DNA of 64,000 nt from an uncultured bacterium. GTDB taxonomy: Bacteria; Chloroflexota; UBA5177; JANWHV01. How positions within the stretch are numbered: the stretch's first letter is position 1; every line of letters begins with the position of its first letter. The notes beneath the pieces are model-generated. The model was not told where the DNA came from, did no database searches, and saw only the letters and a list, made by a program, of their open reading frames with translations. The position numbers were made by a program, and so were the translations under genes. Positions 60,202 to 64,000 of the stretch are shown piece by piece. The stretch is from the NCBI GenBank assembly GCA_963729625.1, contig CAVSOU010000008.1, positions 192,001-256,000 on the forward strand, given 5' to 3'.

Positions 60202-61485
60202 TCACCACGGTTTATTTGCCTGCGAGCGCGGCGGGATGATGGTGCTGCAGGGCGGCGGCGGCGCGAGTGCAGCCGCATGAGAGCAGAGGGCCAGGCTCAT
60301 CAGGAAGTCATCGTGCCCTTCGCTCGCCGGTACAAAGAAGCGCATCTGCTCGTTGACGCCCAGGTCATACCGCGCCGACTCGATTTCGCGCCGCGCCTGC
60401 CGCCAGGCTTCGCTTCCGTCCTGCCTGTAGAGACGGCAGCGGCCGGTACCAGCCAAGGCCAGCAGCGCGAACCCCAGTCGCGATTTCGACGGCGCGGTGA
60501 AGACAAACTGCTCCACCACCGCGCCCCCGAGGACGCCTTCGAGCCAGGAGGCGACGCCTGCGCCCAGGCCTGTGGCATCCACCACGACCTTTGTGCAGGG
60601 AAAGACGTCGGCCAGCAGGTGGCGAAGCGCATGGTGTTGGGTTGGATGGTCCGCCCCCGACCACTGGTAGTGTTGCACGACCTCCAGCGAAGGCTCGAGC
60701 TCCTCCGTCCAGTGCAGCCGTGCTATCGTGGTCACGGTGCTGTCGCGGCCACGGTCCGCCGCTGCCGGTGCCAGGAGTCCTGGAATTGCCTGAGCGTCCT
60801 GGCCGGCTACGTCTATCCCCGCCACGTAGGTTTCGCCTGCGATGCCCTCGGCCAGTCGCGCGTGTCTGCCTGAGAGCAGCAATGAACGCGTCGCGAGCGA
60901 AAACAGGCGTCCCATCTCCTCGAGCGGCTGCAGGCAGTATTGCGTCTGCACGATCGGATGGTCTGAGCCGAGCCTGGCTATCTCGGCTTCCACGAACATG
61001 CGATAGGCCGGCGAGATTTGTGCCAGCACCTGCCAGTCGTACTCGAAGTGGCGACGTATGCCGTCGCGGTGCTCAAGGGCTAGGTTCACCTGCTTCTGGC
61101 GCTCGAGTGGGTTCGTTGCGTCCCACGCGGTGCCATAGAGCACGATTGGCGCGTTAGTCGAGCTGGCCATGGGGCGGAATTCGCGCTGCACCTTGTCTTC
61201 CTGCAGGTCCTGCGCCTCGTCAAGCTCCAGAAGCACGTCGGCAGTTCCGCCAACGACATGGCTGGCGGGAGCGCCCGAGAGAAAGCGTACGCGGGCGCGG
61301 CCCAGCTCGATCGCATCCTGGCTGGTGCGCACGCAGCCGCGGTTCAGTGGATTGTCAAGCACGCTCAAGAGGCGCTGTCTGCTGATCAGTGCCTGCGGGC
61401 GGAGCGTCGGGGCCGCTTTGACCAGCGTGCCGCCGGTAAACCGGTAGATATTGAGCAGGTACGCTTCGAGCTCCGCTGAAAGCTC
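60202..61485 (-). pseudogene. Terminase large subunit-like gene, 3' portion, truncated at Walker A
   Basis: Frame reads ELSAELEAYLL..LVKAAPTLRPQ..LLELDEAQD (Walker B)..VLYGTAW..AGIDVAG..VVDATGLG..HDDFLMS (RNase H-like nuclease); in-frame TAA at about 61507-61509 and no start codon or GK motif before ELSA. Confidence 0.75.
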
Positions 61486-61661
61486 AATATAGCTGCGTTG
61501 TGTTGTTTATGATATAGCGCAGGACTGCCCCACGGGGGGTACGACTTCGCAACGAGCGCTGTTCAGTACTGCTCACGAGCAGGGACCATCGCCCACATGC
61601 AATTCTCGTGCGCCCTGGCGCATCCTAGAGGCTATTGCACAGCGCAATTGTTCACACTATC

Positions 61662-61750
61662 GGGCCGTCCTCGCGCGCGGGGAGAGCGAGTCATCCAGGA
61701 TATGGGAAGCACGGCGACGACTGGGCCGTCCTCGCGCGCGGGGAGAGCGA
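61662..61750 (-). CRISPR. Type I-E-like mini-array without cas genes: two identical 28-bp repeats and a 33-bp spacer, with degenerate flanking repeats spanning 61521-61790
   Basis: gggccgtcctcgcgcgcggggagagcga at 61662-61689 and 61723-61750 (period 61); its reverse complement TCGCTCTCCCCGCGCGCGAGGACGGCCC resembles I-E repeats such as GTGTTCCCCGCGCCAGCGGGGATAAACCG. Confidence 0.65.
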
Positions 61751-61805
61751 AGCGCCGGATCTGCTGGGAATCCGGGGCTTGATCGGGCGACGCGCTTATG
61801 GCCGG

Positions 61806-62015
61806 CTAGTCGGGCTCTACCTCGCCGTCGATCACGTAGCTGCGATGGGTGCGGCGGATGTGGTAGACACTGCGAATGACCGCCAGGTCCTTGTCTATCT
61901 GCCGGCTGCTCATGCCGTAGTGCTCCGCCAGCGTCGCGCGGGTCCAGACGCCCGGCTCACGCAGGATGCGATGGGCGATCTGAACGCGGCGCTTGAAGGC
62001 GGACTTGACGCTCAT
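61806..62015 (-). CDS. Small HTH protein (HTH_11-like)
   Basis: RRVQIAHRILREPGVWTRATLAEHYGMSSRQIDKDLAVIR; start overlaps the upstream stop. Confidence 0.8.
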   Translation of the reverse strand: MSVKSAFKRRVQIAHRILREPGVWTRATLAEHYGMSSRQIDKDLAVIRSVYHIRRTHRSYVIDGEVEPD

Positions 62016-62254
62016 CAGCGCAGCTCAACCAGATAGTCATCAACTGCACCGTACTGTCGGTCGGCATTGACGGCGCGGAATGCGCGGTAGTTGTAGGGTC
62101 CCCAGCCCATGACTTCGGTCACGGCGATCTCGCCAACCTGATAGCGGTGGTCGAGATACTCGAGGTCTTGTCCCGTGACCTTGCTCTGCGGTGCGATTCG
62201 GTCGGTTGTCGCGTTGTAGTCGATGTACGCTGCTGCCCTGATATGCTCGTCCAT
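62015..62254 (-). CDS. Hypothetical protein (79 aa)
   Basis: RBS GAAGGAG; tightly coupled in the operon; acidic and aromatic composition. Confidence 0.7.
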   Translation of the reverse strand: MDEHIRAAAYIDYNATTDRIAPQSKVTGQDLEYLDHRYQVGEIAVTEVMGWGPYNYRAFRAVNADRQYGAVDDYLVELR

Positions 62255-62302
62255 CGTTCTTCCTTCTGCCCGGTTTCGCCGCCGGGCCCGGCACTGCCTT
62301 GG

Positions 62303-62914
62303 TCAGGCTCGCTGGACGCTCCCATTCCGGGACTGAGCATTGAACACCTTCACCAGCTCGGCGATCTCCGCGGCCGCCTCTTCCTGGGTGACGTTTGGCA
62401 CGATGGAGACAGGGCGGCCGAGGGCAGCCTGCAACTTGCCGATCTTGCTCAGTTGCTCCTGGGTGGCCACCCCTGACGGTACAACACTCGGCTTCGGCGC
62501 CGTGTGCGCGGTAGCCGGCGAAGCGCCTATGGCGGGATACGTGGGCATGTCGTCGTCGCCCAGCTCCTCGAGCGCGGCGCCGCCCACGTTCAGGGCGTCG
62601 CGCAGCGCGCGGGCCTTGGCGCGCGTCTCGGCCATGCGGATGTAGTGGGCGGCGACCATCTTGCCGGTGTTCTGCACATTGGCGTCGCCGATGCCGGTGT
62701 AGGTGCCGGCCTCGGTCGTCACTTCGGCCCAGACAATGGCCGTCCAGGCGTTGACCTCGGTCGGCGCCTGCTCGAGCTGCGTCCGGATGGCCTTCAGGCC
62801 CGAGCGGTGCGCCAGGTCGAGCAGGCCGGCATAGAGCACGAACTCTTTGCCGGCACGCTCGATGACGTAGCGGTGGTCGATCTTCTTGATCGTGCTGATG
62901 GCGTCGCCGTTCAT
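62303..62914 (-). CDS. Rad52/22-like single-strand annealing protein candidate
   Basis: GKEFVLYAGLLDLAH..AIVWAEV..TYTGIGDA..IRMAETRAKARALRDALNVG..EEL; C-terminal ATQEQLSKI. Confidence 0.65.
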   Translation of the reverse strand: MNGDAISTIKKIDHRYVIERAGKEFVLYAGLLDLAHRSGLKAIRTQLEQAPTEVNAWTAIVWAEVTTEAGTYTGIGDANVQNTGKMVAAHYIRMAETRAKARALRDALNVGGAALEELGDDDMPTYPAIGASPATAHTAPKPSVVPSGVATQEQLSKIGKLQAALGRPVSIVPNVTQEEAAAEIAELVKVFNAQSRNGSVQRA

Positions 62915-62916
62915 GG

Positions 62917-63141
62917 CTACCACCGTCCCTTTGCCGCCAGAGCGTGATACTCGTAGGTGTGGCCATCGTAGGAGTAGTCTAGATCGTGCCGGCGCGCCTC
63001 CGCGAACTGGGCCAGTGTCTCGCGTGCCAAGCAGTCCGGGCAGTGCATGCGTTCCTGCCAGGTGTCGCCGTCCGTGTACGGGTAGCGCTTCTGGCAACGC
63101 AAACACGTTGCCGTGGGATGCCAGGCTTCCTGTGCTACCAT
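62917..63141 (-). CDS. Small zinc-finger protein
   Basis: CLRC...CPDC; RBS GAAAGGA; first gene of the leftward operon. Confidence 0.7.
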   Translation of the reverse strand: MVAQEAWHPTATCLRCQKRYPYTDGDTWQERMHCPDCLARETLAQFAEARRHDLDYSYDGHTYEYHALAAKGRW

Positions 63142-63242
63142 AGTGTCTGAGTCCTTTCGACTCGGTGAGCGGCTCCCTAACTTTTCCAGGGTGGGGGAGC
63201 CGTTCGGCGTTTCAGGAGAGCTCATGCGCTCTGCCTGCTACC

Positions 63243-63318
63243 ATTATCTCATAGTGCGCGCGCACTTACAATAGTGTAAACGCACTATCTTGAAAGTGCG
63301 CGCGCGGTGTGCTATCGT
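63243..63318. promoter_or_regulatory. Divergent promoters with three related operators
   Basis: Leftward TTGTAA-N17-GATAAT; rightward TTGAAA(63290)-N17-TATCGT; operators AGTGcgcgcgCACT (63253), AGTGtaaacgCACT (63273) and AGTGcgcgcgCGGT (63295). Confidence 0.75.
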
Positions 63319-63337
63319 AGTCTCAGGAGGAGTTGCG

Positions 63338-63553
63338 ATGATGGCCGCAGCAAAGCGCGAGATGCCGCGTGGCGGGAAGCGCGCCAGGAAGGGTACCGGC
63401 CGCGCGCGCTCGAGCGGGCTAAACTTGCTCTTGAGCCCCGACCACAAGGCGTGTTTGACCGCTCTCGCCGAGGCGGAAGGCATCACCCGCACCGCCCTCA
63501 TCGAGCGCTGGATCGACGAGCACAGCTCCCAGCCCACGCAGGCGCCCCAGTAG
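63338..63553 (+). CDS. RHH/CopG family regulator
   Basis: LNLLLSPDHKACLTALAEAEGITRTALIERWI; RBS AGGAGG. Confidence 0.8.
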   Translation: MMAAAKREMPRGGKRARKGTGRARSSGLNLLLSPDHKACLTALAEAEGITRTALIERWIDEHSSQPTQAPQ

Positions 63554-63759: not shown

Positions 63760-64000
63760 TCAGGGCAGAGGCATCTTGGTTTGACCGAGTACCTGAGGCG
63801 CCTCGATCCGAATCCCCGGTATCTGAACCTTACTCAGATCATCGTCCCAGGTTAGCAGAACATCGCAGCGAGCCCGCAAAGCGCAGGCTATATGCAAGGC
63901 ATCGAAAGGCCTTACACCGTAGTTTCGGCATAACCTGTTGGCGTCGATGCCTATCTGCATGTCCACCACAATCCATTGGAACAGCCGTCGCTGAAAGAAG
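63760..64000 (-). CDS. PIN domain protein (partial, starts beyond the window)
   Basis: GVRPFDALHIACAL..DVLLTWDDDL. Confidence 0.85.
   Translation of the reverse strand, partial: FFQRRLFQWIVVDMQIGIDANRLCRNYGVRPFDALHIACALRARCDVLLTWDDDLSKVQIPGIRIEAPQVLGQTKMPLP

Follow-up and report, generated by a model that had tools for sequence, protein, structure and literature searches.

Does a pair of identical 28-bp repeats, 61 bp apart on a mobile element, form a working type I-E CRISPR mini-array, and, if not, what produced it? The question is raised by a 64,000-nt stretch of DNA, here called the window, from an uncultured Chloroflexota bacterium (GTDB lineage Bacteria; Chloroflexota; UBA5177; JANWHV01). 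The window covers positions 192,001 to 256,000 of contig CAVSOU010000008.1 (C8:192001-256000) of GenBank assembly GCA_963729625.1. This assembly (G000) holds 5,411,702 bases in 21 contigs and is 87% complete, so the absence of a gene from it is not proven. Positions are given in window numbering, or in that of L003 (C8:252001-272000) where so marked. Tentatively, and at less than even confidence, we read the pair as what remains of a single spacer that a Cas1-Cas2-type integrase inserted ectopically, now without CRISPR function; paired protein-binding sites and an unexplained duplication follow closely as rivals. The unit consists of the following features.

61723..61750, minus strand: copy 1 of the 28-bp repeat, the first copy 3′ of a helix-turn-helix (HTH) gene on the minus strand, identical to copy 2
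61690..61722, minus strand: 33-bp intervening sequence, the single candidate spacer, unrelated to the flanks
61662..61689, minus strand: copy 2 of the 28-bp repeat, identical to copy 1

The two identical repeats 61 bp apart had been reported in a preliminary description of the window, and were found as described, at 61662-61689 and 61723-61750. They agree at every position, with a start-to-start distance of 61 bp and 33 unrelated bases between them. When the window was shuffled, none of 100 shuffles (0/100) gave any match to the 28-mer pair at three or fewer mismatches. Across the whole assembly, and at the same tolerance, the 28-mer occurs at just these two sites. It is therefore not a dispersed repetitive extragenic palindromic (REP)-like element, and the genome-wide scatter that the preliminary description had raised as an argument against an array does not occur.

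A partial third repeat had also been proposed, near 61784, and with it a second spacer. Allowing 6 nt either way around one period, no more than 14/28 bases agreed with the 28-mer on the HTH side and 13/28 on the other side, and 21% and 43% of the random window positions sampled, respectively, did as well. The candidate third copies are thus at chance level, the unit is repeat-33-repeat with one spacer only, and the supposed second spacer is ordinary flanking sequence. A diverged 61-bp tandem duplication was considered and rejected, since the 33-mer, set in register against the 33 bases of each flank, shares only about 30% identity with them.

The repeat is itself nearly palindromic, and the imperfect internal hairpin described earlier is present. 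Self-complementarity of the 28-mer is highest at shift 0, with 9 of the 14 centred pairs complementary and the dyad exactly centred, and the inner 16 bp are self-complementary at 14 of 16 positions. Because each copy is nearly palindromic, the two can pair with each other. At three or fewer mismatches, 20 kb held 7 matches to the 16-bp core, where 1.14 were expected; the two repeats, each counted on both strands, account for four of these. A dif/Xer-like 28-bp site was rejected, as the centre is not A+T-rich when judged by the dif consensus. The plus-strand open reading frames (ORFs) that run over the repeats (61 and 133 aa) have no family match, and the two copies are read in different frames.

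Type I-E likeness is confined to geometry

The pair was compared with 21 loci around cas7e genes of the same phylum, which gave 22 arrays; cas7e was found in 34 of the 401 phylum genomes searched. A period of 61 was modal in 20 of the 22 arrays, and the pair (28 + 33 = 61) has the same period. From 21 oriented repeats of these arrays we derived a consensus, GTTGTCCCCACGCnCGTGGGGGTGAACC, and a covariance model, which is specific to the phylum. With filters off, the model picked out 16 places in the window at E ≤ 10, none of them at the 28-mers. Presented alone, the two 28-mers scored 2.3 bits, in an alignment that dropped 2 nt from the loop and left one stem position mispaired.

Folding gave a similar picture. 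The 28-mer folds at -8.0 kcal/mol (z +0.55), with 138 of 200 shuffles at least as good. For two true I-E repeats from the phylum the values are -14.4 and -15.4 kcal/mol (z -2.8 and -3.5), which 2/200 and 1/200 shuffles equalled. Neither the repeat unit of 103 nt (minus strand, z -1.46; plus strand, z -1.41) nor the whole non-coding tail in which it lies (z -0.74) folds better than shuffled sequence. A series of three or more repeats with different spacers was not found, the copies numbering two. Rfam returned no CRISPR family match at the locus, a result that carries no weight either way: release 15 also returned none on a true 38-repeat I-E array beside cas genes (L017 13200-13700), and Rfam negatives on CRISPR-like repeats are therefore weightless.

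Genes for the CRISPR machinery were sought next to the pair and in the rest of the host. A six-frame search of the whole 87% complete genome for seven Cas families (Cas1, PF01867; Cas6e, PF08798; Cas7e, PF09344; Cas5, PF09704; Cas3-HD, PF18019; RAMP, PF03787; Cas6, PF01881) gave no matches, and the window, said from the first to lack cas genes, was no exception. The preliminary description had suggested comparing the 28-mer with the host's own arrays, but a k-mer scan of the host genome found no array with at least three copies. Cas1 and Cas7e were each present in none of five genus genomes (0/5). As far as could be tested, then, no I-E system was found in the host or its genus. In the class, Cas1 occurs in 7 of 21 genomes and Cas7e in 3 of 21, all three in another family (3/12 there) and with an unrelated repeat; these tallies count one unpublished genome, G018, as negative, and no positive claim rests on it.

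The class relative with this unrelated I-E repeat is G012. The 69-aa HTH protein encoded beside the pair shares 39% identity with the N-terminus of a 339-aa ORF of G012 (L066, G012:C154:18583-18714), across 44 residues (E 1.8e-5). The 339-aa ORF is on the same contig as the I-E genes, some 6 kb upstream of the cas7e match. The likeness may be a general one of the HTH_11 family only.

Public collections were scanned with the repeat core, for which an exact match to 21-24 bases was needed, so that arrays differing at any specified base would be missed. On these terms, IMG/VR gave 0 matches, and a collection with one genome per species gave 34 loci but no array (33 single matches and 1 self-overlapping pair on opposite strands). 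The Joint Genome Institute (JGI) metagenomes gave 1 single match, with no second copy nearby. At three or fewer mismatches, the 28-mer occurred in 0 of 400 other phylum genomes, a sample that includes the class and genus genomes. A 24-nt core gave single matches with three mismatches in only two other class genomes, and the reversed-pattern control matched too. For the 33-mer, no second match was found in its own genome (best 18/19, E 0.086), none at three or fewer mismatches in the other 20 class genomes, and none in IMG/VR, where it was searched as two exact 22-mers. The target search that had been proposed for the spacer thus produced no protospacer in these three sets, neither in a related element nor in a host gene, and the repeat matched no array of the host or a relative.

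Likeness to type I-E arrays is therefore limited to geometry: the exact period stood, and hairpin, repeat similarity and host cas content all failed. The repeat is not recognisable as I-E, and very probably it does not function with Cascade here.

These results bear directly on the idea of a functional mini-array, or of a mimic of CRISPR RNA (crRNA), that is transcribed with the HTH operon and uses host Cas6e and Cascade in trans. We consider this very unlikely. It has the I-E geometry on its side, and a position on a mobile element, past a small gene and an HTH gene that overlap by one base, an arrangement resembling acr-aca pairs. The weak HTH likeness to the ORF on the G012 I-E contig, and the 13% of the genome that is unassembled, could also be cited for it. 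Candidate RNA anti-CRISPRs (Racrs) have been reported beside acr genes (PMC10651486). According to the portions of that study drawn on here, however, a Racr candidate needs both a match to a known CRISPR repeat and a promoter no more than about 250 bp upstream; of the proviruses with solitary repeats, about 90% were in hosts with CRISPR-Cas, and 83% matched the host subtype (PMC10651486). The pair studied here has no significant match to a known repeat, being unlike the I-E repeats of the class or phylum, and no host CRISPR-Cas of the same subtype was found. Its hairpin is not stable, no sigma-70-like site was seen in the 250 bp upstream, and no protospacer was found. The crRNA mimic with borrowed Cas6e and Cascade, as first proposed, is thus unsupported by the fold, the 2.3-bit score and the host Cas search.

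A more general form of the same idea is a live RNA device, which we hold to be just as improbable. Transcription of the HTH operon would run on through the unit, and an unseen Cas or Cas-like protein, encoded in the missing 13% or in another host of the element, would process or bind the RNA. The unit might then act as a guide or decoy whose repeat family resembles no array sampled, or be a newborn CRISPR locus on a satellite-like element.

Origin of the repeat pair

The pair has the anatomy expected of an ectopic insertion, namely an exact duplication of repeat length around an unrelated insert of spacer length. We tentatively suggest that an I-E-type Cas1-Cas2 made one staggered-cut insertion at a non-CRISPR site, in a cell having an adaptation module. 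The staggered cut would have duplicated 28 bp exactly, centred on the dyad, around the 33-bp insert, and the unit would now be carried passively, with no CRISPR function, in a Cas-less background. The 28-bp segment would be symmetric about its dyad because a two-fold symmetric enzyme cuts on either side. Since the repeated sequence is not a CRISPR repeat, an off-target site fits better than a captured array; an ectopic insertion would also explain why the sequence fails all I-E tests though its geometry is exact. The site is a neutral place on the mobile element, non-coding and past the last gene, and was counted in favour of the insertion. As a weak further sign, the plus-strand insert starts with G, like the usual 29th base of the 29-nt I-E repeats in the phylum arrays.

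Ectopic spacer insertions are called neo-CRISPR; their off-target sites are often palindromic and can differ considerably from the repeat. To our knowledge, spacer integration by I-E-type Cas1-Cas2 is the only process that duplicates a target of such length around an insert of such length. As papers citing Nivala et al. (2018) report, overexpressed I-E Cas1-Cas2 of Escherichia coli integrates off-target at non-array sites, spawning new arrays.

Several points weigh against this origin. No Cas1 was found in the host assembly or in the five genus genomes, and the element's one close relative belongs to that genus too; a former Cas1-bearing host, or a cas locus in the missing 13%, therefore has to be assumed. 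Both the insertion step and the lack of present function are inferred. A centred near-palindrome is equally the target of a dimeric DNA-binding protein. Finally, this genome contains a further 10 direct-repeat pairs that are exact and not in tandem, and two of these combine a similar spacer with other repeat lengths (repeat/spacer 27/35 and 39/35). Such lengths would not come from a fixed I-E ruler, and some non-CRISPR process therefore makes such pairs.

The count took in exact, non-tandem pairs whose repeats had 22 nt or more and whose spacers had 15 nt or more, with the period capped at 200. Eleven such pairs were found, the studied pair included. One is a tRNA pair, and the copies of another (22/53) continue beyond a 1-nt indel. 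The 27/35 pair lies at C21:8836-8924, and the 39/35 pair at C10:854354-854466, just upstream of a gene for a pyridoxal phosphate (PLP)-dependent enzyme that is followed by a hexapeptide transferase gene; neither is palindromic by eye. A second orphan pair was noticed at C7:647718-647830 of the same genome (L126 6719-6830). Its copies, of about 32-33 nt with a 1-nt indel, end in GGATTGAAAC and are separated by about 43 nt; a degenerate third copy may be present, and a small, putatively MazF/PemK-like ORF lies next to the pair.

With such pairs in the genome, and no cas genes found there, the studied pair could be a functionless by-product of a non-CRISPR duplication or templated insertion, its 28/33 geometry being coincidental. 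The 27/35, 39/35 and 22/53 pairs were counted in its favour. However, no known non-CRISPR mechanism gives an exact 28-bp duplication around an unrelated insert, and coincidence would have to cover both the exact match to the I-E period and the centring of the duplicated segment on a dyad. We regard this by-product as unlikely. If the pair is instead an insertion scar, it would represent natural off-target CRISPR adaptation fixed on a mobile element, and direct evidence that repeat-spacer units arise outside arrays and travel into Cas-less lineages.

The mobile element and its non-coding tail

The repeat unit sits in the 310-bp non-coding tail of the element. A Cas-less pair at the 3′ end of a mobile-element operon, co-oriented with a small HTH gene, was what the preliminary description had placed here, and this arrangement was confirmed: read on the minus strand, repeat copy 1 starts 55 nt past the stop codon of the 69-aa HTH ORF. 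The tail, which runs to the left attachment (att) arm of the element, and the neighbouring genes are as follows.

61517..61661, minus strand: non-coding stretch of about 145 bp, from repeat copy 2 to the att arm; no Rfam match in a search of low sensitivity
61806..62015, minus strand: 69-aa HTH protein, last gene of the operon; Pfam HTH_11, HTH_PafC and HTH_DeoR, all below cut-off
62015..62254, minus strand: 79-aa protein, function not known; its stop overlaps the HTH start by one base
62303..63106, minus strand: 267-aa protein, phrog_22961, function not known; central part conserved across many class genomes
62917..63225, minus strand: 102-aa ORF, zinc-ribbon-like, first in the operon; RNHCP E 8e-4, below cut-off; shares bases with the start of the 267-aa ORF as listed
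63243..63318, no strand given: divergent promoter-like region with palindromes ATAGTG-N6-CACTAT and sigma-70-like sites
63290..63553, plus strand: 87-aa ribbon-helix-helix (RHH)-like protein; RepB-RCR_reg and RHH_1, both below cut-off
63760..64000 (L003 3760-4272), minus strand: PIN-domain gene, extending past the window

The minus-strand operon thus runs from the zinc-ribbon-like ORF through the 267-aa and 79-aa proteins to the HTH protein. Between 61300 and 63800, the only sigma-70-like sites are the divergent pair at 63243-63318; there is none from 61300 to 63240 on either strand, although the promoter type of the host may differ from the sigma-70 consensus. An intrinsic terminator was searched for and none was found. 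Two ATAGTG-N6-CACTAT palindromes and a partial third, likely operators, occupy 63249-63310. An ATAGTG half-site abuts repeat copy 2, at 61650-61659 on the minus strand.

Relatives of this region are few. In a word-indexed search of 5.8 billion proteins, the 69-aa HTH protein had no homologue but itself, on record on two contigs. The 79-aa protein had a sole match in the same set (P0002), 99% identical with one residue changed, on a contig of 15,197 bp. This contig may be a free (excised) or separately assembled form of the element, which measures about 15,192 bp. IMG/VR held no relatives of the 267-aa protein and no match to the left flank with the start of the repeat, and the class genomes held no homologue of the non-coding tail. 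In the genus relative G004 (L068, G004:C16:41-3184), a zinc-ribbon protein, a homologue of the 267-aa protein and an HTH protein recur beside a tyrosine integrase, itself read in pieces, so that different integrases accompany this module.

The element itself, of about 15.2 kb, is newly delimited here. It has a large serine integrase at one end and inverted-repeat arms, and it splits a terminase-like gene.

61500..61516, no strand given: 17-bp terminal inverted repeat, left att arm, with a perfect partner (17/17, opposite strand) beyond the window, at L003 16659-16675 (76659-76675 in window numbering)
60202..61506, minus strand: C-terminal four fifths of a gene resembling a terminase large subunit, cut off by the element
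L003 16687-16881, minus strand: N-terminal piece of the terminase-like gene with a Walker A motif, outside the window, ending just past Walker A
L003 15172-16623, minus strand: large serine recombinase; PF00239 (Resolvase), PF07508 (Recombinase) and PF13408 (zinc-ribbon) above cut-off; phrog_95 integrase, E 9e-76

Other genes between the arms encode a 74-aa excisionase-like HTH protein, a 709-aa primase-helicase, a radical-SAM protein and a terminase large subunit of the element's own, besides the PIN gene, the RHH gene and the operon. This second terminase (L003 5243-6725, minus strand) is spread over two neighbouring ORFs, one for the ATPase part (260 aa; phrog_7579, E 2e-58) and one for the nuclease part (229 aa); the break is either natural or due to a frameshift. 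None of the scanned element ORFs matched capsid, portal or tail families. By this absence and by its cargo of primase-helicase, own terminase and PIN/RHH toxin-antitoxin pair, the element resembles a phage satellite.

The terminase-like gene is uninterrupted at the insertion point in two genus relatives, G002 (L056) and G003 (L057). In G004, the same gene is split at the same place by an element of about 16.7 kb, with an integrase 58% identical, in the opposite orientation and with other cargo; homology to G004 ends at window position 61494. Assignment of the split gene as a terminase is based on weak PHROG matches (E 3e-4 to 5e-3) and motifs, and it has no sequence relative in the PDB. It lies among ordinary host genes, with a sedolisin-type peptidase on one side and a putative small Flp-pilin-like ORF on the other. 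Integrase relatives in the class are limited to G004, and those in IMG/VR are just 28-29% identical. Contigs from two public DNA runs were short, covered neither the element ends nor the repeats, and contained no joints.

A promoter-like site for the integrase, TTTACC-18-TATAAT (10/12), lies inside the right att arm. In the excised circle, the predicted order would be HTH gene, repeat-bearing tail, phage-type attachment site (attP) and integrase gene. A further reading takes the pair as paired operators or iteron-like sites at which an element-encoded dimeric protein would bind two 28-mers about six helical turns apart. The 69-aa HTH protein, the RHH protein, the excisionase-like HTH protein and the replication protein are the candidate binders. 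The tail would lie directly upstream of attP and the integrase gene in the circle, where a bound protein could govern read-through into the integrase gene or the sites could serve as an origin of replication.

The centred 16-bp near-palindrome in each copy, and the excess of matches to it, are consistent with such sites. So are the several small DNA-binding proteins that the element encodes, the GC-cored palindromes of its promoter region, and the promoter-like site in the att arm. The 39/35 pair just upstream of a metabolic gene further suggests that regulatory pairs may exist in this genome. However, the 6 non-palindromic bases on each side of the core are also identical between the copies, which selection for a binding site does not need, and no simple mutational route copies 28 bp to a site 33 bp away. 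The motif is nowhere else in the element, and the palindromes of the promoter region have different arms. Moreover, the sites lie downstream of the operon and not at its promoter, and the related G004 element, whose corresponding non-coding tail measures about 470 bp, is without such repeats. On balance, we think the operator reading doubtful, if possible. If true, the pair would mark the control region of a little-known serine-integrase family that targets a conserved terminase-like gene. Whether insertion scar or operator, the 28 + 33 geometry alone is weak evidence for a working I-E mini-array.

Comparison with known systems

With type I-E arrays, the pair shares a 28-nt repeat and a 33-nt spacer with a period of 61, a G+C-rich sequence with a central dyad, and a non-coding location. 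It differs in having two copies and no stable stem-loop, in scoring 2.3 bits against the I-E model, and in that no cas genes, leader or promoter-like site were found.

Operator pairs and iterons of phages, satellites and plasmids resemble the pair in their near-palindromic core, in two copies roughly in helical phase, and in a control region beside attP and an integrase gene. They differ in that the pair is identical over 28 bp, non-palindromic flanks included, has no further copies, and lies downstream of an operon.

As far as papers citing Nivala, Shipman and Church (2018) describe them, neo-CRISPR loci share with the pair one spacer-sized insert, an exact duplication of repeat length, and a site that is not a CRISPR repeat. 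They were made in E. coli with overexpressed Cas1-Cas2, whereas here no Cas1 was found in the assembly or genus and the unit is on a mobile element. Racrs and viral mini-arrays, the subject of PMC10651486 and PMC11656645, are likewise Cas-less repeat-like sequences in intergenic positions on mobile elements, beside small genes. Racrs as defined in PMC10651486 are solitary, match a known repeat of the host subtype and have a nearby promoter; here neither match nor promoter was found, and the unit is a pair.

The element that carries the pair can be compared with gene-splitting elements of large serine recombinases, such as skin with SpoIVCA and the prophages in sporulation or heterocyst genes. 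It differs from them in that its target is a lone terminase-like gene and its cargo is phage-satellite-like. Like them, it has a large serine recombinase at one end and inverted-repeat arms, and it splits a conserved chromosomal gene, in this case just past the Walker A codons.

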